From positions 1-10,789 of IMG/VR virus record IMGVR_UViG_2917849834_000008: 10,789 nt of DNA; one strand, 5' to 3'. The notes under the pieces were generated by a model, which worked only from the letters and a program-made list of their open reading frames with translations, did not search any database and had not been told where the DNA came from. A program made the position numbers and the translations under genes. Within the stretch, counting starts at the first letter, position 1. The number at the start of each line of letters is the position of its first letter. This document shows, one piece after another, positions 1 to 9,808 of this stretch. The DNA comes from a virus. Taxonomy: Duplodnaviria > Heunggongvirae > Uroviricota > Caudoviricetes.

Positions 1-1056
1 TCCAACACCGCACAGAGCCATAACGGCGACCTGTACGTCGATGAGATTTTCTGGATCCCGAATTTTCAGGTACTGCGTAAAGTGGCATCAGGTATGGCCT
101 CACAGAGTCACCTGCGCTCGACCTATTTCTCCACCCCGTCCACGCTGGCGCACGACGCCTACCCGTTCTGGTCGGGTGAACTGTTTAACCGGGGACGCGC
201 CAGCGCCGCCGAACGCGTGGAAATCGACGTCAGTCATAACGCCCTTGCCGGTGGGCTTCTCTGTGCGGACGGCCAGTGGCGGCAGATTGTCACCATTGAG
301 GACGCCCTGAAAGGTGGCTGCACACTGTTCGACATTGAGCAGCTCAAACGCGAAAACAGCGCCGACGATTTTAAAAACCTGTTCATGTGTGAATTTGTTG
401 ACGACAAGGCGTCGGTGTTCCCGTTCGAGGAGCTGCAACGCTGCATGGTCGACACGCTGGAAGAATGGGAAGACTATGCGCCGTTTGCCGCGAATCCGTT
501 CGGCTCCCGTCCGGTATGGATTGGTTACGACCCGTCACACCGTGGCGACAGTGCCGGATGCGTGGTGCTGGCACCGCCGGTGGTGGCCGGTGGCAAATTC
601 AGAATACTTGAGCGTCACCAGTGGAAAGGCATGGACTTTGCCACCCAGGCGGAATCCATCCGCAAACTCACCGAAAAATATAACGTCGAATACATCGGTA
701 TTGATGCCACCGGCCTCGGTGTCGGCGTGTTCCAGCTCGTGCGCTCGTTCTATCCCGCCGCGCGCGATATCCGCTACACGCCGGAAATGAAAACCGCAAT
801 GGTGCTCAAGGCAAAAGACGTTATCCGTCGTGGCTGTCTGGAATATGACGTCAGCGCCACCGACATCACCAGCTCGTTCATGGCTATCCGCAAGACCATG
901 ACCAGCAGCGGACGCAGCGCCACCTATGAAGCCAGCCGCAGCGAGGAAGCCAGCCACGCCGACCTCGCCTGGGCGACCATGCACGCCCTGTTAAATGAGC
1001 CACTCACCGCCGGTATCAGCACTCCGCTGACATCCACCATTCTGGAGTTTTACTGA
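1..1056 (+). CDS. P: Terminase large (ATPase) subunit, P2 gpP-like; 3' portion only, 5' end lies upstream of the window
   Basis: Frame 1 is open from position 1 with no stop and runs into ORF 82..1056 (the GTG at 82 is not the real start). Stop TGA 1054-1056 overlaps the Q start (TGATG). The order P -> Q -> cos matches the P2 left end. Family assigned from recalled similarity to P2 gpP, not from a search. Confidence 0.8.
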   Translation, partial: SNTAQSHNGDLYVDEIFWIPNFQVLRKVASGMASQSHLRSTYFSTPSTLAHDAYPFWSGELFNRGRASAAERVEIDVSHNALAGGLLCADGQWRQIVTIEDALKGGCTLFDIEQLKRENSADDFKNLFMCEFVDDKASVFPFEELQRCMVDTLEEWEDYAPFAANPFGSRPVWIGYDPSHRGDSAGCVVLAPPVVAGGKFRILERHQWKGMDFATQAESIRKLTEKYNVEYIGIDATGLGVGVFQLVRSFYPAARDIRYTPEMKTAMVLKAKDVIRRGCLEYDVSATDITSSFMAIRKTMTSSGRSATYEASRSEEASHADLAWATMHALLNEPLTAGISTPLTSTILEFY

Positions 1057-2090
1057 TGAGCAAGAAAAAAGGGAAAACACCGCAACCTGCGACAAAAACA
1101 ATGACCGCCAGCGCCCCGAAAATGGAGGCATTCACCTTTGGTGAGCCGGTGCCGGTACTCGACCGCCGTGACATTCTGGATTACGTCGAGTGCATCAGTA
1201 ACGGCAGATGGTATGAGCCACCGGTCAGCTTTACCGGTCTGGCAAAAAGCCTGCGTGCTGCCGTGCATCACAGCTCACCGATTTACGTCAAACGCAATAT
1301 TCTGGCTTCAACGTTTATCCCGCACCCGTGGCTTTCCCAGCAGGATTTCAGCCGCTTTGTGCTGGATTTTCTGGTGTTCGGTAATGCGTTTCTGGAAAAG
1401 CGTTACAGCACCACCGGTAAGGTCATCAGACTGGAAACCTCACCGGCAAAATATACCCGCCGTGGTGTGGAAGAGGATGTTTACTGGTGGGTGCCGTCCT
1501 TCAACGAGCCGACAGCCTTCGCGCCCGGCTCCGTGTTTCACCTGCTGGAGCCGGATATTAATCAGGAGCTGTACGGCCTGCCGGAATATCTCAGCGCCCT
1601 TAACTCTGCCTGGCTGAATGAGTCGGCCACGTTGTTCCGCCGAAAGTATTACGAAAACGGCGCTCATGCCGGATATATCATGTATATCACCGACGCATTG
1701 CAGGATCGCGATTACATTGATTCACTTCGCGAAAACATGGCCAGGTCGAAAGGCCGCAATAACTTTAATAATCTGTTTCTCTATGCCCCACAGGGAAAGC
1801 CAGACGGCATCAAAATTATCCCGCTCAGTGAAGTGGCGACAAAGGACGATTTTTTTAATATCAAAAAATCCAGCGCCGCTGACCTGCTGGACGCGCACCG
1901 CATCCCCTTTCAGTTGATGGGCGGCAAGCCGGAGAACGTCGGGTCGCTGGGTGATATTGAGAAAGTGGCTAAGGTCTTTGTCCGCAATGAGCTTATCCCG
2001 TTACAGGACAGGATTCGCGAGATAAATGGTTGGCTCGGTCAGGAGGTCATCCGCTTTAAAAACTACTCACTGGACACTGACAACGGCTGA
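1056..2090 (+). CDS. Q: Portal (capsid vertex) protein, P2 gpQ-like
   Basis: 344 aa ORF, the size I recall for P2 gpQ. Start ATG overlaps the P stop by 1 nt. Followed by a strong terminator and, about 170 bp downstream, the cos site, as in P2. Typical high-GC enterobacterial coding composition. Confidence 0.85.
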   Translation: MSKKKGKTPQPATKTMTASAPKMEAFTFGEPVPVLDRRDILDYVECISNGRWYEPPVSFTGLAKSLRAAVHHSSPIYVKRNILASTFIPHPWLSQQDFSRFVLDFLVFGNAFLEKRYSTTGKVIRLETSPAKYTRRGVEEDVYWWVPSFNEPTAFAPGSVFHLLEPDINQELYGLPEYLSALNSAWLNESATLFRRKYYENGAHAGYIMYITDALQDRDYIDSLRENMARSKGRNNFNNLFLYAPQGKPDGIKIIPLSEVATKDDFFNIKKSSAADLLDAHRIPFQLMGGKPENVGSLGDIEKVAKVFVRNELIPLQDRIREINGWLGQEVIRFKNYSLDTDNG

Positions 2091-2095
2091 ACATC

Positions 2096-2117
2096 GCCGC
2101 CTGCGGGCGGCTTTTTT
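2096..2117 (+). terminator. Rho-independent terminator downstream of Q
   Basis: Perfect 6-bp GC stem gccgcc (2096-2101) / ggcggc (2106-2111) with 4-nt loop tgcg, followed immediately by TTTTTT (2112-2117), 6 nt after the Q stop codon. Confidence 0.7.
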
Positions 2118-2259
2118 ACACCCCGCCATCACGCCCTCACACGCTCACCACAGCACAAAACAGCCCGCAGACACACCAACGCCCCGGCGAACAATCTAAA
2201 CGCCATCACGACGTGCTCAGACGCTGAAAAAATAAAATCAGCACCACCGCCAGCGCGCA

Positions 2260-2278
2260 GTGCTTTCCCCGCCTCGCC
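2260..2278. other. cos: Phage cohesive-end site (cos), P2-type 19-nt sequence, present in joined form
   Basis: gtgctttccccgcctcgcc at 2260-2278 is the exact reverse complement of GGCGAGGCGGGGAAAGCAC, which I recall as the 19-nt P2 cohesive end. It sits between the Q 3' end and the old/tin-equivalent region, as expected for a prophage or circular form. Confidence 0.6.
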
Positions 2279-2565
2279 CGCCCGCTTCGTGAGGCGGTTT
2301 TAATGCACTTGCATGAATGGCCTAAAGTACGCCAGTTCTGACACTGCAAAGTTAGAAAATGCCTGACAGGCACATGCAAAATGATGCATCAAATGAATTC
2401 ATACTGAAATAACCCCCCAACCACATAGCTAAGCATCCACATCTTTACATCTAACTCACTAAATTCTCTTGAATAAATCAAAAAGTTAGGTTAGATCTCT
2501 GTCGTTGAGGAAGGCAACCTCGAACACTTAAGGCTAAATATAAAAAGAATAAAAAGAGGGATAAA

Positions 2566-2853
2566 ATGAAATTAAAACTCAAAAACGTAACAAGCTATCA
2601 TAAAGAATATTTTACTGAGTTAGATTTATCCAAAAAAATAAACATATTGTATGGACAAAATGGTTGTGGAAAATCTACCATATCAAATTATTTTTACAAT
2701 CCTAAAGACACCGCCTATAAGGAATGTGTATGCGAACCCATCGATAATTATCGAACTCTAGTCTACAACTCAAAATATATAGAAGATAATTTTTATAATG
2801 CAAAAGAGCAAAAAGGTATATTTACCCTCAGTCAAAAAAAATGCAGAAATTGA
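2566..2853 (+). CDS. N-terminal fragment (Walker A / P-loop) of an AAA_13-like ABC/SMC-type ATPase, RloC-like; frame broken at an A8 tract
   Basis: Good SD (aagaggg, 2554-2560) 5 nt before ATG 2566. Translation contains the P-loop GQNGCGKST. Only 95 aa, then stop at 2851-2853; the downstream ORF in the -1 frame carries the rest of the ATPase motifs. Very AT-rich, unlike the flanking phage genes. Confidence 0.6.
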   Translation: MKLKLKNVTSYHKEYFTELDLSKKINILYGQNGCGKSTISNYFYNPKDTAYKECVCEPIDNYRTLVYNSKYIEDNFYNAKEQKGIFTLSQKKCRN

Positions 2854-4775
2854 AAAAAATACTATCTGAAAAAGAAGAGCTAAACAAATCACTAGCACAT
2901 CAGCATAAAGAAAAAAAAGAATTTATCGAAAAACTTCATGAAGCGAAAAACAAAAAAGAGCAAGAGTGCATAAATTCCATATGGAATAAGACCAAAGACA
3001 TAAGAAGTTCAGAATTAAAACAATTAATGAAAGGTCAAATAGGAAGCAAAGCCACTTTCTATTACCATCTAAAAAAGTATACTCCACAAACTGATATTGA
3101 TATAAAATCATTAATACAATCTTATAGCAAACTTCTCGAGTTTAAAGGAAAAGAAATACCTCTGATAACTCCTTATAAAGGATATGTTTTATCTGAAGAA
3201 ACTCAAAAAACATTATCCACACCAATTATTGACTCTAGCAACAGCTATTTATCTGAAGCAATAAAAGAGCTACAAAATATTGATTGGATTAAACAAGGCA
3301 AAGAGCAATATTTAAATGGAGAAATTTGTCCATTTTGCCAAAGGGACACAATAGATGATAATTTTATTAAAGCCATTGAATCTATCTTTGATGAAACATA
3401 CTCAAGAAAAGTAGATCAAATACAACAAATAAAACTATCTTATGATAATGCCATTAAAAATCATCATGAAGAAATAAAGAGTAACATTTTATCATGTGAG
3501 GTGATAAACCAAGACGAAAAAGATAAAAGTCTTTCATATGTTAAGGCGTTAGAAACTATTGCAGAAAAAAACATTAAATTATTGGATAATAAAATAGAAA
3601 ATCCATCTATAAGCATTGTGCTGGAGTTTGAAAAGTCGATAGAGGAAAAACTATTAGAAGATATAGAACAATACAACAATAAAATTAACGAGTTCAATGA
3701 CAAAGTAAAAAGATTTAATAATAGCGAAATAGATATTCGCGAAAAGATGTGGGCAGCAATCAGAGACTTATGTAGCGCGGAATTTGAAATACTATCAGAC
3801 TGCGAAAGAAACTTTCAAGAAAAATATGAAAACGCTGCATCCTTCATGCAGGAAATAAAAAGAAAAGAAGAGATCAACACAAATGAAATCAATGAACTAA
3901 GAAATAAAACATCAAGTGTAGATGCAACAATAGATGCAATAAACTCACGACTTAAATTTCTTGGCATCTCTGGTTTTAGCATTGATAAACACGCCGAACT
4001 CAAAGATAAGTATATAATATCCCGCGATGGAAACAATAGAAAACAAGATGTATATCGGTCATTAAGCGAAGGTGAAAAAACATTAATAACGTTTCTATAT
4101 TTTTTAGAATGTTGCAAGGGTAAAACAAATGAAAATGATAATGATATGCGTGATAAACTCATAGTTATAGATGATCCTATATCAAGTCTATCTCAAAACT
4201 ATGTTTTCGACATAGCATCCATGATCCATCATGACATAATTGAAAAAGGCATTTCATCAAAAATAATAATCCTCACCCATAATCTTTATTTCTTCCATGA
4301 GTTAATAAAACTCGCCTCTAAAAAAGGAATAAACTTTAAACGGGACTACTTTCTTGGCAGAATAAACAAAAATGAATTTAGCACCATTAGTGCTATAGAT
4401 AAAAAAAGTGTGCAAAATGAATACCAATCCCTTTGGCAAGTATTAAAAGATGCAAAAGAGAAAAAAATCAACAAAATAATAATCCCAAATATTATGAGAA
4501 ATATACTTGAGTATTACTTTGCATTTGTTCATAGAACTGACGCATTAGAGGAAAAGCTTACTGAATTAACAAATGATGAAAATAACAGCCATTTCCGTGC
4601 CTTTTACAGATATATAAACAGAGGCTCTCACTCCGACGCAATAAATATAACAGACATGGGCGATATTGAACCTGAGAAATACTTAGAACTCTTGCACAAA
4701 ATATTCAGAATGACTGGTGATGAGAAACATTACTTAACAATGATGGGTGAAGAAGAGGTAAATGTTACCGCTTAG
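2841..4775 (+). CDS. Main part of RloC-like AAA_13 ATPase: coiled coil with CxxC zinc hook, ABC signature-like and Walker B motifs, C-terminal putative anticodon-nuclease-like domain
   Basis: 644 aa ORF. Lys/Glu-rich predicted coiled-coil region (aa ~1-400) with CPFC at aa 163-166 (nt 3327-3338). LSEGEK (aa 408-413), DKLIVIDDP (aa 438-446) and ILTHN (aa 477-481) match ABC-type signature / Walker B / H-loop. C-terminal ~150 aa contain MRNILEYYFAFVHR...SHFRAFYRY. This frame is open from 2799 and overlaps the upstream ORF across the A8 tract 2834-2841. Confidence 0.7.
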   Translation: MQKLKKILSEKEELNKSLAHQHKEKKEFIEKLHEAKNKKEQECINSIWNKTKDIRSSELKQLMKGQIGSKATFYYHLKKYTPQTDIDIKSLIQSYSKLLEFKGKEIPLITPYKGYVLSEETQKTLSTPIIDSSNSYLSEAIKELQNIDWIKQGKEQYLNGEICPFCQRDTIDDNFIKAIESIFDETYSRKVDQIQQIKLSYDNAIKNHHEEIKSNILSCEVINQDEKDKSLSYVKALETIAEKNIKLLDNKIENPSISIVLEFEKSIEEKLLEDIEQYNNKINEFNDKVKRFNNSEIDIREKMWAAIRDLCSAEFEILSDCERNFQEKYENAASFMQEIKRKEEINTNEINELRNKTSSVDATIDAINSRLKFLGISGFSIDKHAELKDKYIISRDGNNRKQDVYRSLSEGEKTLITFLYFLECCKGKTNENDNDMRDKLIVIDDPISSLSQNYVFDIASMIHHDIIEKGISSKIIILTHNLYFFHELIKLASKKGINFKRDYFLGRINKNEFSTISAIDKKSVQNEYQSLWQVLKDAKEKKINKIIIPNIMRNILEYYFAFVHRTDALEEKLTELTNDENNSHFRAFYRYINRGSHSDAINITDMGDIEPEKYLELLHKIFRMTGDEKHYLTMMGEEEVNVTA

Positions 4776-5002
4776 GCCGCATATTACCGATTCGGGTAAG
4801 AACGACGGTGCTTACGCACCGTCTCCCAGCGCCCAAAGCGGTAGCGGTTGTACTGTCGTACATTCACTAACCTTAACATGAGATTATCTCCATGCCGGCA
4901 CCATTGTTGCCAATGGCAGCCTTTATACCCTTTGTATAAAGCTAATACTAAGAGCATTGCTAGGTAGATTTCCCAAGCGGTAACGTGGGTATTCTAAGAC
5001 AA

Positions 5003-7291
5003 TTACTTAAAAAGATCAAAGCCACTAAAAAACTGCTTCCACTCACCACTTATTGGATATATAAACTTTCGTCCGTCAAACTTTACCGTCGCGCCACGCG
5101 CCAGCGCCTCAAGCTCCCATCGCTGCGGCCTGATACCGTTCTGAGCAAGGTCAACGCGGATACGGGTAATTTGCATTCTTTCCGACCGGGTCAGTCTGGC
5201 CGATGGTGCAATTTCATGTGGTTTTAACGGGCTTCCGTTTCTTTGCTGACGGTTTGGCGTTCTCAGGTCGTGTTTTAATGCGCCCCTGAGCGCCCTCACG
5301 ACCTCCGGTTCACTCCATTCAATAACACCGTCATCAACCAGATTAAGCACTGCTGCGGCGTGCTCAGAAGGTGTGGGAGCCGATAACGAAGTATTACCGC
5401 CGGTGAGCTTTCCACAGTTATTGACAGGACTCCGAGGCGCGGCGATGCCGCTTTTTAAAGTCAAAGGCTCAACGACCGGAACTTTCGGCACAATGCGCCA
5501 GTCCGTCGTTCTGGTGATATGAATATGACGCGCGCCGAGATGCGGCGCGTAAATGCCGACCACTCTCTCGACTTCTTCCTCGTACTCGTTAACGTCATCC
5601 GACGTGCTACGGGCAACCCTGACAGTCTGACAATCGCGCGGGACATTTGCCCCGCCCTGCGCGCTGATATACAACGCAAAATCACCACTGTCTGCGGCGG
5701 CGCGTGCAGCCTCGACGCGTTCGTCAAACTCATCAGCAATGCTGACGCCGCGAGGCAATTTGCGTAGTTCACGGTAAGCCCCCATTGTCGGCAGACCAAC
5801 CGTTTTAAATTGCGGAATGCGCCACGTTGACGCCCATGCGGTAACAGCCGCAGCAGTATCTTTCAGCGGCCTGCCGGTATCGTTATCGAGCTGACCATCC
5901 AGTGCATAGCCATCGATGTTTTTTGAGATGTATTTCGCGATATATCCCGCAGCACCGCCCCGGTTAAGGTGTTTTGCCTGAAAACGGTTTCGCGCGGCTC
6001 CTCTTTCGTCGCCATCCTCTTTGAGCGCATAGCGACGCATGATTTCGATAATCTGGTTACGCTGGCGTGGATTACAAAAAAGCATCATATGCCAGTGCGG
6101 CGTTCCGTCGTGGTGTGGCTCGACGACACGCAAACCGTAGACCTGTAAATCATTATCCTTGAATGCCGTGCGCATCAGGCTCCAGATATGGCAGAGATAA
6201 CGCTGCGCATCCTTTGGATTAAATGCCTCATCGTTCCAGCCGTGATTTAGCTGGACGGTTTTACTTTCGCCTTTTCCGACCTGACGTGTCGGGTGATACT
6301 TTGACGGCGTGGTCAGCGTGATAAACATCCCCACATCACCCTCTGCGGCGGCGTAACGCTCAATACCGGCAATGGTGTTCATCAGCTCCATCCGGCGAAT
6401 TTCAGGATTAGAAATACTGCCCATCACCTTACTGATAAGGTCGATGCGCTCGCCGGTTTCCCTGTTTTCAAGGTCACACGATTTAAGAAATTCCAGATTT
6501 GCCTGGCGGCGCGCACGCACATCACGAATGGCGTGTTTACTGGCATAAGGAGAACGGTCTTTATTGACCTCCCCGACAGCTATCAGTAACGCTTCATGCC
6601 AGCGCATACGCTGGCCTTTAAGCTGATGAGTCCACCACTCATCGTTAAACAGACGGGCAATTGCAGAATATGCCTGCCTCGTGGTCATCTGTCCTTTACG
6701 GTATTTTTTCCAGTAGAGAGGGGAAATATTGAAAGCACGTGCAGCGCCAGCAACATGACCATAGAGGTGAGCCTGCGCCTCATCCGTAAACAGCGATTCT
6801 TTTTCGCCATGCGCATCCCCCCAGGCATCGCTGAGTTCCTCATACATCATGAAAAGCTGCGATGAGATACGGGCAGCAAACTTTTTCAGCTCCTTGTCAT
6901 TCATTCCCGGCAGGCGCGCATAGTGGTCACGCTCTGCCAGAAACAGTAACGACGCGTCGGTGTTCATTTCATGGCGCTGATTCACACGCTCAATGCGCGG
7001 CCATAAACGACGCTGAAAAGTGGATGTGAGGAAATAAAACCCGTGCACCGGGCTTTTATTGCGCCGGATGTAGTCATAGCGTGAAGTAAACAGCGAACGC
7101 AAAAAGTAAGGCAGGCGGTTAATCGTGGATAAAACACCTTGCACCTGACGCATCTCGTCACGTGTAAGGGGTCTTTCGCGCCCGACGGCCTCGCGTGGCG
7201 CGTTCCATGCATAAGCACCGGTAAACGTCTTACCGGTGCCTGCGGCAAATGCTGACGGAGGGACAAAACGCCCGGAGGCTTTAACGGCCAT
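5003..7291 (-). CDS. A: Replication initiation protein, P2 gpA-like rolling-circle initiator
   Basis: Large minus-strand ORF (track 5003..7333, 776 aa with a TTG start at 7333). The first ATG at 7289-7291 starts MAVKASGRF, which I recall as the P2 gpA N-terminus, and gives ~762 aa. Contains the HxH-like segment PHHDGTPHWHMMLF. Located between the cargo and the B/cox region as in P2. Confidence 0.85.
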   Translation of the reverse strand: MAVKASGRFVPPSAFAAGTGKTFTGAYAWNAPREAVGRERPLTRDEMRQVQGVLSTINRLPYFLRSLFTSRYDYIRRNKSPVHGFYFLTSTFQRRLWPRIERVNQRHEMNTDASLLFLAERDHYARLPGMNDKELKKFAARISSQLFMMYEELSDAWGDAHGEKESLFTDEAQAHLYGHVAGAARAFNISPLYWKKYRKGQMTTRQAYSAIARLFNDEWWTHQLKGQRMRWHEALLIAVGEVNKDRSPYASKHAIRDVRARRQANLEFLKSCDLENRETGERIDLISKVMGSISNPEIRRMELMNTIAGIERYAAAEGDVGMFITLTTPSKYHPTRQVGKGESKTVQLNHGWNDEAFNPKDAQRYLCHIWSLMRTAFKDNDLQVYGLRVVEPHHDGTPHWHMMLFCNPRQRNQIIEIMRRYALKEDGDERGAARNRFQAKHLNRGGAAGYIAKYISKNIDGYALDGQLDNDTGRPLKDTAAAVTAWASTWRIPQFKTVGLPTMGAYRELRKLPRGVSIADEFDERVEAARAAADSGDFALYISAQGGANVPRDCQTVRVARSTSDDVNEYEEEVERVVGIYAPHLGARHIHITRTTDWRIVPKVPVVEPLTLKSGIAAPRSPVNNCGKLTGGNTSLSAPTPSEHAAAVLNLVDDGVIEWSEPEVVRALRGALKHDLRTPNRQQRNGSPLKPHEIAPSARLTRSERMQITRIRVDLAQNGIRPQRWELEALARGATVKFDGRKFIYPISGEWKQFFSGFDLFK
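5421..5440 (-). other. ori: Putative origin of replication (gpA nick site) inside the A coding region
   Basis: ttgacaggactccgaggcgc on the + strand is the reverse complement of GCGCCTCGGAGTCCTGTCAA, which I recall as the P2 ori nick region. The P2 ori is known to lie within gene A. The match is exact but the reference sequence is from memory. Confidence 0.45.
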
Positions 7292-7556
7292 GTGAGCCAA
7301 AAGCCTCTGAACAACGCTTGCTGAGTTGCTCAACCTGCGCGTTTAAATCAGCAAAAGATTTTGCGCTTCCGGTCAGAATATCGTGATGCATCATGCCGGA
7401 AACGAGCTGGCTTAATTTCGGGTAATAACCAACCACCGCCAGCCATTCCTGACCGGCGTTTTTACCGCTTTCCGCTCTCTTTTTCTCGTGGAGAATAAAC
7501 TGAAAGCTGTCACTGGTAACGACATAACGTTCGCCAATGTCAATACGAATACTCAT
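7281..7556 (-). CDS. Hypothetical protein; by position corresponds to the small ORFs between B and A in P2 (orf83-like)
   Basis: 91 aa ORF with ATG start; its stop overlaps the A start region and its start overlaps the upstream ORF stop by 4 nt (ATGA). Composition matches neighbouring phage genes. Confidence 0.55.
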   Translation of the reverse strand: MSIRIDIGERYVVTSDSFQFILHEKKRAESGKNAGQEWLAVVGYYPKLSQLVSGMMHHDILTGSAKSFADLNAQVEQLSKRCSEAFGSHGR

Positions 7557-7783
7557 GCCGTTCTCCGGTAATGTTTGTTTTTTGCTTCAAAGACTGACTG
7601 ACAGGAAACACAACGCGTGGCTGACGGATAAGCCGCACGACGGGCAGCAGGTATTGGCGCGTCACACTCTTCGCAAACCAGCGCAGAAGCACCGCAATGT
7701 TTTACCCTTGCCGCGTTAATCTGGCGCTCCAGTAATTCAGCCTGTTGTTCCTGAATAAAATCTACGTTGTCCGGCATTATCAA
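7553..7783 (-). CDS. TraR/DksA-family C4 zinc-finger protein (P2 orf82-like)
   Basis: 76 aa ORF with CEEC-x17-CVSC (CxxC-x17-CxxC), the TraR/DksA zinc-finger spacing. 4-nt overlaps with both neighbours. TTG start at 7783 per ORF track. Confidence 0.7.
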   Translation of the reverse strand: MIMPDNVDFIQEQQAELLERQINAARVKHCGASALVCEECDAPIPAARRAAYPSATRCVSCQSVFEAKNKHYRRTA

Positions 7784-8082
7784 CTCCTTTTATCGTTAAG
7801 TTTCCTGGATACATCAGCGCAATAACTGGCGAGTTCTGTCGTTAATTTTGTCAGTTCATCCACTGAGGAAATTTGCTTGTGGAATACAGCGCGTTTAACA
7901 AGTAAATTGACCACATCAGACAGGAGATTTAATTCATTCTGATAAATCGCGATAACAGATTCAGTTATGTCGCGTTTTTCTTTATCAAGACAAAGTTGAA
8001 TAAGAGATAAATCACCATTTTCCATAACGGCGATTTTTAAGGCGTTATTCAGTAATACAACTGAATGAGAGCAGGACATCAA
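7780..8082 (-). CDS. Hypothetical protein (P2 orf81-like by position)
   Basis: 100 aa ORF, translationally coupled by 4-nt overlaps to the upstream (8079..8303) and downstream (7553..7783) ORFs. Confidence 0.5.
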
Positions 8083-8303
8083 AGCACCTCCCCGCGAGAC
8101 AATCCGATATTGTGAAATTTTTCCGACTCCTGACTGAGCAGCTCGACTATCTCCACGCGGGATAACTCCGCCTTTGTGATGTGGCGAATCATGGCGTCAA
8201 GATGAGAAGAAAAGCGCGTCGCAGCGTCGGCCTGTGCTTCGGTTCTGGCCTGTTGCAGCAGTAATGCGTATTTACCGCACTGATTTTCAGAAACTGTATG
8301 CAT
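8079..8303 (-). CDS. Hypothetical protein (P2 orf80-like by position)
   Basis: 74 aa ORF, first of the four-ORF coupled chain downstream of B; start ATG at 8301-8303. Confidence 0.5.
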
Positions 8304-8366
8304 GACTTTCTCCAGGCAAAAAGAAGCCCCGCACGATTAAGTGCGTTAAAAACTCTGGTTAATTAT

Positions 8367-8873
8367 TTAATGCAGATATTGCTCTGGTTTTACCGACGTC
8401 AGAATTGTCGGTGCATACTCAAACAGGCTGAATAATTCACGTAATGCACGGAATAAAGCATCACGCCAGTAACATGACTCTTCATTAATTCGCCAGTATG
8501 GCTGGTTGAATTCTTTTTCAGTCAATCCGGCATGCATAAATAAAGTACGGCGCTGACTGACAGTTAAAAAGCTAATATATGCATACTCACTTGCACCGAC
8601 CTGACGGCGTTTTGAGAATGCCCCACGCAATTCATCAATTGCACAAACCAGCCGTTCACGTTCGACGTCGTTCATTTCTTCAAAACGCATCGTTGCGTGA
8701 CGTTGTTTTAACTGCGCATGAAAGCAAACTGTTAGCCGTTCGCGCTCCATCATCTGATTATAATAATCACATGTATCCTGCCAGCGAGGGACGGCCAGAT
8801 GCTTACCAATTATCCGGCGCATAGCTGCTGGCTGTTTTTCAACGAGATTGAGCGTCATCACTGTCATTTCCAA
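8367..8873 (-). CDS. B: Replication protein B, P2 gpB-like (helicase-loader-type)
   Basis: 168 aa ORF (P2 gpB is about 166 aa as I recall) in the expected position between the cox/orf78 and orf80-83/A equivalents, same strand as A. Confidence 0.65.
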   Translation of the reverse strand: MEMTVMTLNLVEKQPAAMRRIIGKHLAVPRWQDTCDYYNQMMERERLTVCFHAQLKQRHATMRFEEMNDVERERLVCAIDELRGAFSKRRQVGASEYAYISFLTVSQRRTLFMHAGLTEKEFNQPYWRINEESCYWRDALFRALRELFSLFEYAPTILTSVKPEQYLH

Positions 8874-9061
8874 ACCCTCCGGCTTTTCAGAAAGGTCAGA
8901 GCCTTTTTTAAGGGACTCTGTTTTTTGGTACGGATAATGATTCCCTTGCGTCCCTTCCCGTGGGTGATGGTGAAGTCAATCGCCCTGGGGCTTTCGTTAC
9001 GCAATAACTGAGCAATACAACGCGGCTCATTCATAATCACAACCCCATCCACAAAAGCCAT
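8864..9061 (-). CDS. Hypothetical small protein (P2 orf78-like by position)
   Basis: 65 aa basic ORF between cox and B; overlaps the B start by 10 nt. Confidence 0.45.
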   Translation of the reverse strand: MAFVDGVVIMNEPRCIAQLLRNESPRAIDFTITHGKGRKGIIIRTKKQSPLKKALTFLKSRRVWK

Positions 9062-9324
9062 GCATCACGCTGTTCAACCGGTCGGTTATAAAACGCCTCA
9101 CGTACAGCGCGATTAAACTCAGGAATGAAAACCCATTTTTCACCGGCACGAGCCTTCGGTTTGCAAGGATCACGCAATTCAATAATTGGTAATTTATTTG
9201 CCTTCACCATTTCACTGACGGCTGTCTTTGGCTTCCCTAATAAATCAGCAAATTTATCCATATGAACCGCATCAAGCGGATACTGAATCACATAATTTTC
9301 AGCGTCCATATATGGTACCCTCAT
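9037..9324 (-). CDS. cox: Cox-like protein (excisionase / early-promoter transcriptional regulator)
   Basis: 95 aa ORF, first gene of the leftward early operon and divergent from C. The translation (...KLPIIELRDP...RAGEKWVFIPEFN...RDAWLLWMGL) follows the pattern I recall for P2 Cox (...KLPVID..DP...RAGEYWVYLP...RDGWLMWLGL). True start may be the internal Met (MDAENY). Confidence 0.65.
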   Translation of the reverse strand: MRVPYMDAENYVIQYPLDAVHMDKFADLLGKPKTAVSEMVKANKLPIIELRDPCKPKARAGEKWVFIPEFNRAVREAFYNRPVEQRDAWLLWMGL

Positions 9325-9386
9325 AGGATCCAGCCCTTTCTAAACCACTCAAAACCGTTTAGACGCTGGTTTATTCTCAAATCAAT

Positions 9387-9434
9387 GGAACCTATATAGG
9401 TTCCAGTTTTGAGGGAATTTAGTCCCTATATAGG
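9387..9434. promoter_or_regulatory. Immunity switch region: candidate C-repressor/Cox operators (repeated cctatatagg) overlapping the divergent early and repressor promoters
   Basis: Perfect 18-bp palindrome ggaacctatataggttcc at 9387-9404 and a second copy of the 10-mer cctatatagg at 9425-9434 (34 bp centre to centre), in the 121-bp gap between cox (start 9324) and C (start 9446). TATATA cores could double as -10 elements. Confidence 0.45.
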
Positions 9435-9445
9435 CACCATGTCAA

Positions 9446-9739
9446 ATGAAATTAAGCGAAAAGATTAAGGCCTTGCGTGAGGCGGAAGGGCTAAGCCAAT
9501 CAAAATTCTGTGAAATCATAGAGTTACCGCTAAGCACACTTAAAAAATATGAAGGAGGAAACTTTGAACCCGGTGGCACAGCTTTGCTAAAAATCACTAT
9601 GCATCCCACATTCCAAAAATATGCTCTATGGCTTATGACAGATAAAACCGCGCCGGACGCAGGACAAATCGCACCGGCTCTCGCGCACATTGGGCCAGAG
9701 TCAACAGAGTCCAACCACTCCGCGAAAAGGATTGGCTAA
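9446..9739 (+). CDS. C: Immunity repressor, P2 C-like
   Basis: 97 aa ORF (P2 C is about 99 aa), divergent from cox and directly upstream of int. N-terminal HTH-like segment (LSQSKFCEIIELPLSTLKKYE) and C-terminal GQIAPALAHIGPE, which I recall as conserved in P2-family C repressors. Confidence 0.75.
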   Translation: MKLSEKIKALREAEGLSQSKFCEIIELPLSTLKKYEGGNFEPGGTALLKITMHPTFQKYALWLMTDKTAPDAGQIAPALAHIGPESTESNHSAKRIG

Positions 9740-9808
9740 CTCTATATAAAGATTACATTTTCACCATTTGCTACCAAGATGGTGAATACAGCGCCGGAGG
9801 GCTTTCTT

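Follow-up and report, generated by a model that had tools for sequence, protein, structure and literature searches.

The DNA analyzed here is a 10,789-nt stretch, called the window below, from a virus of the Caudoviricetes (IMG/VR record IMGVR_UViG_2917849834_000008), and it belongs to a P2-like prophage. Between the cos site and the 3′ end of gene A, where P2 carries old and tin, this prophage has an insert with a gene for an RloC-family anticodon nuclease and, facing it on the other strand, a conserved open reading frame (ORF) of 31 codons. We suggest that positions 2309–5072 are a horizontally acquired module of the nuclease gene and the small gene at the P2 hotspot, and that the nuclease acts by the mechanism described for Geobacillus RloC; we consider this reading quite probable. 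An earlier note on this DNA had proposed an anti-phage module with a single gene. All coordinates are positions in the window, and the P2 reference is NC_001895.

The sliding G+C profile of the window falls sharply, from 0.53–0.59 to 0.26–0.35, between about 2400 and about 4700. By segment, the G+C content is 0.554 for 1–2090, 0.548 for 2091–2400, 0.302 for 2401–4775, and 0.476 for 4776–5002. The cargo gene has a G+C content of 0.299, compared with 0.53 for gene A (5003–7333), and its G+C at third codon positions is 0.26, compared with 0.54 in A and 0.64 in Q. Its commonest codons are AAA, GAA, and ATA. The composition shift greatly exceeds what chance would give, and it is found where the earlier note had placed it by eye, at 25–30% G+C against about 55% for the flanks, with the skewed codon usage that it had described; the measured values are 0.30 against 0.53–0.554. 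The note had extended the odd composition over about 2.7 kb. However, the AT-rich part stops at 4775, and 4776–5002, with 48% G+C, is a separate conserved unit.

The alignment with P2 shows an exchange at the old/tin hotspot. The cos site, the cohesive-end sequence of this P2-like prophage, lies at 2260–2278 (GTGCTTTCCCCGCCTCGCC) and is the exact reverse complement of P2 cosL 1–19. Window 1–2308 aligns to P2 genes P and Q and through cos with 96% identity, and 5073–9035 aligns to A, B, and the small early genes with 97% identity. The homology is lost after 2308 and returns at 5073 (P2 30252), so that 2309–5072 stands in for P2 30253–33544, a segment with the final 22 codons of A plus orf91, tin, and old. 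Thus, the proposed position and horizontal exchange of the insert both hold. Of the replacement boundaries, the left edge at 2309 adjoins cos, and the right edge at 5072 is 70 nt inside gene A. The last 23 codons of A on the minus strand (5003–5072, translation GRKFIYPISGEWKQFFSGFDLFK) are not those of P2, so that cargo exchange at the hotspot reaches into the 3′ terminus of an essential gene. Homology between the window and the APEC O1-type allele extends only to 5022.

The cargo gene (2566–4775, plus strand) is convergent with gene A, as the earlier note had it, but in the window it is present as two ORFs, 2566–2853 (95 aa) and 2841–4775 (644 aa), rather than as one large gene. The intact form has 735 aa, and the frame-repaired protein was used for the family searches. 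It matches Pfam AAA_13 over its full length (E 7e-103) and the PADLOC candidate defence family PDC-S06 (PDLC04886) over profile positions 4–724 of 727 (E 1.3e-251). The PrrC model matches residues 435–717 (E 3e-15). Homologues at 28–31% identity carry the Joint Genome Institute label 'wobble nucleotide-excising tRNase'. NCBIfam has no specific model for the large protein, and a sequence search of the PDB gave no match. Thus, the search against defence-system hidden Markov models (HMMs) that the earlier note had proposed gave an assignment to a defence-type family.

The published definition of RloC (PMC2610378) comprises the motifs of an ABC ATPase, a largely helical coiled-coil insert that splits the ATPase domain and has a CX2C zinc hook in its central loop, and Arg-X3-Glu-X36-52-His near the C terminus, where the His often follows a Ser. 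All of these are found in the cargo protein. In an alignment of 36 homologues, down to 20% identity, the Walker A motif GQNGCGKST (2653–2679) has invariant G30, N32, G35, K36, and T38. The signature LSEGE (residues 499–503, 4062–4076), the Walker B/D-loop DDP (535–537, 4170–4178), and the linchpin His571 (4278–4280) are invariant as well. The predicted zinc-hook motif CPFC, residues 254–257 (3327–3338), has invariant C254 and C257 and nearly invariant P255 and F256; it forms a loop between model helices 238–248 and 264–273 within the helical insert. The putative anticodon-nuclease triad reads R644-NIL-E648 (4497–4511), then 39 residues, then S687-H688 (4626–4631), all invariant, as is N641. 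The Glu-to-His spacing of 39 and the Ser before the His fit the published RloC motif. The size of 735 aa is within the published range of 658–897 aa, and a protein of strain APEC O1 that almost certainly corresponds to a listed RloC orthologue shares 58% identity with the cargo protein along the full length. RloC has also been described, though not strictly defined, as a stand-alone gene without a linked silencer. This trait is not found here, since the convergent small ORF is present in 46 of 46 loci of the enterobacterial clade.

An AlphaFold2 model of the protein (predicted local distance difference test score, 83) shows a Rad50/SMC-like head and a coiled coil with long helices 93–141 and 403–448, followed by an all-helical C-terminal domain. 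The structural search that the earlier note had called for found the heads of Rad50, condensin, Smc5/6, and LmuB as the closest folds. These matches raise the question whether the protein could be an SMC/Rad50-like DNA-handling ATPase of the prophage, for repair, partition, or packaging, with no RNase activity; about one quarter of P2 hotspots hold partition genes instead of defence genes, according to the hotspot literature. However, the C-terminal 150 residues have no Rad50 counterpart and contain the invariant Arg-X3-Glu…Ser-His triad of PrrC and RloC, the PrrC HMM match spans this C-terminal region, and no Mre11/SbcD-like partner is present. For an ATPase head from which a coiled coil protrudes, the closest solved folds are Rad50/SbcC, where Rad50 likewise has a CX2C hook, and Lamassu LmuB; none of these proteins has an RNase domain fused to it, and their nuclease partners are separate proteins. 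We consider a purely DNA-handling role very improbable. At the level of sequence motifs and predicted fold, the cargo protein is an RloC-family anticodon nuclease.

Comparison with the named systems agrees with this assignment. As judged from the published descriptions, RloC of Geobacillus kaustophilus (GkaRloC; Davidov & Kaufmann 2008; Klaiman et al. 2012) has the same order of ABC motifs, the same CX2C coiled-coil insert, and the same Arg-X3-Glu-X36-52-(Ser)His triad. Like the cargo gene, RloC genes travel on mobile DNA with no restriction-modification system linked to them, and the RloC protein is roughly twice as large as PrrC, as is the cargo protein. RloC is described, however, as an internally regulated, single-gene system, whereas the clade found here always has a convergent ORF of 31–33 codons. 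PrrC of the E. coli prr locus, compared by description, shares the ABC ATPase, the C-terminal nuclease domain, and the catalytic triad, but it has only about 340–420 aa, lacks the coiled coil and zinc hook, and lies within a type I restriction-modification (hsd/prr) locus that silences it. By contrast, the cargo protein has 735 aa and an insert of about 350 aa. No hsd genes are found in the window or in the related loci, and the neighbors are portal/cos and gene A. The native occupant of the hotspot, P2 Old, has the same locus, the same orientation relative to cos and A, and also combines an ABC-type ATPase sensor with a nuclease. It has been reported to cleave tRNA (2026 preprint). However, Old has a TOPRIM effector and no zinc-hook coiled coil, whereas the cargo protein ends in a helical, HEPN-like domain. 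BLASTP finds no similarity of the cargo protein to P2 Old (E 0.61) or P2 Tin (E 0.95), and among the PADLOC and Pfam matches there is no Old, Gabija, or TOPRIM model and only a weak match to the AriA ATPase. The protein is thus neither Old nor Tin, as the earlier note had said.

The gene family and its presence at the P2 hotspot are already on record, contrary to the novelty that the earlier note had implied, and only the conserved small partner gene is a new element. The gpA–gpQ region has been described as a P2 defence hotspot (Rousset et al. 2022, PMC9122126), and Table S5A of that paper has WP_023146974 as an 'AAA_13' arrangement of a single gene at this hotspot. This protein is a near-identical intact allele of the cargo protein, from strain 2D (locus L006). 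Four new systems were found at the same P2 position (Vassallo et al. 2022). The RloC paper lists, as no. 51 of its Table S1, Escherichia coli APEC O1 YP_852004, with 738 aa and the neighbors 'phage replication initiation, capsid' (PMC2610378). APEC O1 has a single AAA family ATPase of 738 aa in a P2-like prophage, where its gene lies between those for the portal and the replication endonuclease, and this is the protein with 58% full-length identity to the cargo protein. From the strain, the length, and the neighbors, YP_852004, apparently the current WP_000423308, is almost certainly the family's allele at the same position. The APEC O1 orthologue has the same portal/cos–gene A hotspot, orientation, downstream small ORF, and conserved spacer. 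It differs in that identity is only 38–49% in its insert but reaches 70–75% in the ATPase lobes and the nuclease domain, and in that it is intact, whereas the window copy is frameshifted. PDC-S06, for its part, was defined as a single-gene candidate without a mechanism, whereas the member described here is of the RloC type and is paired with the small ORF.

One of three alleles of this family is present at the P2 hotspot site in at least 72 (about 1.3%) of the 5,426 complete E. coli genomes, and the same hotspot is occupied by homologues in Kosakonia (61% identity) and Serratia fonticola (44%). Across the alleles, residues 91–450 (window ca. 2840–3920), with the coiled-coil/zinc-hook insert, are 38–57% identical, compared with 70–81% for the ATPase lobes and the nuclease domain. 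This divergence of the insert may be ordinary coiled-coil drift, or it may be diversification of a sensing part.

The window copy of the nuclease gene is disrupted by two A-runs on the plus strand. Alignment to the intact loci L003 and L006, and to L001, shows A8 at 2834–2841, where intact copies have A7, and A7 at 2853–2859, where they have A6. The two +1 insertions give a net shift of +2 and lead to a stop at 2851–2853, so the full protein cannot be made from the gene as sequenced. The same 2.9 kb is found at 98–99% identity in 12 of the 5,426 complete E. coli genomes, flanked in every case by the portal gene and the gene for the replication endonuclease. Of the six of these loci that were opened, five have an intact gene of 2,208 nt (735 aa); the RefSeq copy at L001 is marked 'frameshifted', with a −1 in a third A-run. 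From the window sequence we cannot tell true decay of the gene from homopolymer error. It is plausible, although we put it at somewhat under even, that the extra A's are sequencing or assembly errors and that the strain has an intact, functional 735-codon gene. Both differences are +1, lie in A-runs of 7–8 bases, and are 12 nt apart; all seven A-runs of at least 7 bases in the window fall inside the cargo gene; and the other copies of the ca. 99% allele that were examined are all intact, except L001. Against this, only 4 gaps separate the window from L003 over 7.2 kb, and errors are thus not widespread in the sequence; inactivation is common among toxic abortive-infection genes; and two independent insertions with a net shift of +2 fit real decay equally well. 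A further proposal is that the 5′ A-runs are a slipped-strand on/off switch of a costly gene (phase variation), and that the window shows the OFF state. Two copies, the window and L001, do have indels in different A-runs within the first 350 nt. However, runs of 6–8 A's are short for efficient switching, the window would need two insertions to be accounted for, no single step could restore the frame, and the AT-rich composition alone accounts for the A-runs. We regard such a switch as improbable.

The insert is not the single self-contained gene of the earlier note, because a conserved ORF of 31 codons lies on the minus strand at 4879–4784. It encodes an arginine-rich peptide, MLRLVNVRQYNRYRFGRWETVRKHRRSYPNR, and its stop is 8 nt from the stop of the cargo gene. 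A GGAG (4891–4888) lies 8 nt upstream of its ATG and is invariant, and in all 11 distinct alleles the reading frame is unbroken and without indels. The variable columns of the ORF are distributed over the three codon positions as 6/6/19 (p 0.004), compared with 11/15/12 in the upstream leader, and the variant codons comprise 23 synonymous and 14 nonsynonymous ones. Across the clade, the peptide has 31–33 residues, with the core V-R-x-Y-x-R-[YF]-R-x-G-x-W-E-x-V-x-x-H-x-R-S-x-P-x-R. The 230 nt between the stops of the cargo gene and of A are 85–92% identical between the P2-borne alleles, compared with 72–79% for the last 600 coding nt.

The small ORF is tightly linked to the nuclease gene. The spacer stretch occurs in 60 of the 5,426 complete E. 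coli genomes, only together with an RloC-like gene, and it is absent from P2. At all 12 places fetched by the peptide sequence, the small ORF faces an AAA_13 gene for a protein of 735–742 aa, 8–13 nt away. One of these places, L037, is an ordinary chromosomal neighborhood with no P2 genes, where the homology to the window covers only 2563–4996, which is the span from the start codon of the nuclease gene to the −10 box of the small gene. In a motif scan, each of the 46 loci of the enterobacterial clade had a small ORF (31–33 aa) that faces the RloC-like gene, also in non-P2 contexts and in the alleles of 39–40% identity from Pantoea, Morganella, Photorhabdus, and an smpB-adjacent island of E. 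coli; beside homologues of 29–31% identity (L013–L015) it was not found. An exact-pattern scan for the spacer motif gave 18 copies in IMG/VR, all beside an RloC-like gene, and no copy in a set of one genome per species. Given the small ORF in all 46 related loci and the variation at third codon positions, the module probably consists of two genes, not one.

The peptide matches PHROG phrog_21154, of unknown function, and nothing in Pfam, NCBIfam, PADLOC, or the PDB; a literature search with its core sequence gave nothing. Gene callers have predicted 31-aa products independently; one such cluster, with E. coli as its main source, is recorded in 2,573 blocks of the database that was searched. In a library of 1.84 billion proteins, its relatives make up six clusters only, of 32–70 aa. 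In the RefSeq records examined, the small ORF is unannotated.

Upstream of the small ORF, 4880–5022 on the minus strand has a promoter-like site, with a −35 TTGATC (5019–5014) and a −10 TAGAAT (4996–4991) in which the T, the A, and the final T are invariant, followed by a leader of about 100 nt with conserved hairpins. A leader and promoter function of this segment is suggested by these features. The minus-strand fold of the spacer has a z score of −5.7, 97% of the predicted pairs are kept, and one pair shows the UA, CG, and AU types; structure in the leader is possible, with few covarying pairs behind it. We had considered the spacer, 4776–5002, as a structured noncoding RNA, but that assignment is largely replaced by the 31-codon ORF with its third-position variation. 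Rfam gave no match at gathering scores and, in 4700–5100, only chance-level hits, and no tRNA genes were found. There is no terminator between the convergent cargo and small genes, whose stops are 8–34 nt apart.

This arrangement resembles that of 3′-overlapping type I toxin–antitoxin pairs. The pair could therefore be chiefly an addiction module rather than an anti-phage system, with the tRNase as toxin and either the small gene or an antisense RNA from it as labile antidote. The pair travels as a unit among P2 prophages, integrative elements, and chromosomal islets, and over-expression of RloC is toxic (PMC2610378). On the other hand, the tested cargo of the P2 hotspot is largely defensive, and toxin–antitoxin and abortive-infection roles can coexist. 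We think it unlikely that addiction is the chief role of the pair.

Several loci have further genes beside the pair. In the 39–40% alleles L047–L050, the pair is followed on the plus strand, some 430 nt downstream from the RloC-like gene, by a conserved gene for a 178-aa protein with no Pfam match; neither the P2-borne modules nor Pantoea L012 have this gene. HxsD and two radical-SAM genes are found directly upstream of the 40% allele in L012 (4182–7585, Pantoea ananatis) and in L047 (1197–4582, E. coli island), and this cluster may be a co-travelling system.

The region 2309–2565 upstream of the cargo gene, on the plus strand, is not from P2. It contains a promoter-like block, TTGAAT (2469–2474) and TAGATC (2492–2497) with a 17-nt spacer, and a ribosome-binding site, GAGGG (2556–2560). 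The TTGAAY…TAGATCT block is common to three P2-borne alleles and absent from the non-P2 copy L037, and its occurrence is consistent with a promoter role. In a consensus promoter scan, the number of sites did not exceed that in shuffled sequence; none lay upstream of the cargo gene, and the 2469–2497 block was not listed. A second block, CACATGCAAAA-n-CATGCA at 2362–2386, lies just inside the cargo side of cos; it occurs in four different P2-borne alleles and not in the non-P2 copy. Rather than to the module, it may belong to the backbone or be related to packaging.

Elsewhere in the window, the homology to P2 is lost at 9036–9794, which covers the end of cox, the C repressor ORF (9446–9739), and the operators, and the integrase (from 9779) is only 73–80% similar to that of P2, in patches. 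The immunity and integration module thus differs from that of P2. A frameshift in the terminase gene P, suspected because an ORF was listed as starting at 82, was rejected, since the match to P2 gpP is in frame 1, which is already open at base 1. In addition, many 'complete' E. coli chromosomes have the locus at about 2.2–5.2 kb on the minus strand (H1–H3, H13, H17, H18, H55, H56, H67, H75, H94, H98, H99, H105, H114, H125, H126, H130, and H132). In one such RefSeq record that was opened, the replication endonuclease gene begins at base 1. This placement looks like an artefact of assembly rotation, with the P2 gene A mistaken for the replication initiator gene.

How would the module work? In GkaRloC, the zinc hook holds a silent dimer, DNA ends and ATP hydrolysis activate the nuclease, and the tRNA wobble nucleotide is excised (PMC2610378, PMC3458546). 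By homology, we infer that the N-terminal Rad50-like ABC ATPase, the coiled coil, and the CPFC zinc hook of the intact cargo protein would hold its C-terminal nuclease silent. DNA ends, or another infection-linked perturbation of DNA, would trigger ATP hydrolysis, and the Arg-Glu-His nuclease would then cut tRNA anticodon loops with excision of the wobble nucleotide, so that translation would halt and the infection would abort, as with P2 Old at this hotspot. The small gene is most likely a modulator or safeguard of the toxic enzyme, through the basic peptide, through a 3′-overlapping antisense transcript, or through both. In the window copy, the nuclease gene would be inactivated by the two +1 A-run insertions, unless these are sequencing errors, while the small gene is intact.

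Several points weigh against the proposal of an RloC-type defence module with a small partner gene. The nuclease gene in the window is disrupted. The literature describes RloC as self-regulated and single-gene, and a partner gene is unexpected. The consensus scan establishes neither a promoter nor a terminator for either gene. AAA_13 is not among the systems evaluated in Table S2 of Rousset 2022 (PMC9122126), and in the portion of the supplements of that paper that was available the motif strings of the cargo protein do not occur. PDC-S06 appears in the literature as a prediction only, and PADLOC lists the family as a candidate. The anti-phage role of RloC itself is a model and not a demonstrated phenotype (PMC2610378, PMC3458546). 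Finally, we found in the literature no experiment on any P2-borne allele, including no anti-phage test, so that 'defence' is drawn here from homology and location. Thus, the anti-phage module of the earlier note stands in that the protein is of a defence type, of the RloC family and PDC-S06, but the copy that the note described is frameshifted.

The linkage of the two genes allows a wider, and more tentative, proposal. It is possible, although on balance we doubt it, that the enterobacterial RloC-type nucleases form an obligate two-gene module with a structured leader, in which the peptide or the transcript is the missing silencer or trigger switch. If so, the small gene would be a minimal new counterpart of the role that the EcoprrI restriction enzyme has for PrrC. 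Since the small gene is co-directional with the early operon in P2 prophages, read-through from gene A in lytic growth could turn the nuclease off and spare the carrier phage. The 'AAA family ATPase', 'AAA_13', and 'PDC-S06' proteins of P2 hotspots can now be named as RloC-type, and this name predicts excision of the tRNA wobble nucleotide through a Rad50-like sensor. If the small gene regulates the nuclease, clones with a single PDC-S06 or RloC gene could be toxic, silent, or untriggerable, and the small gene would bear on the question that the RloC authors left open, of how RloC is silenced without a linked restriction system.

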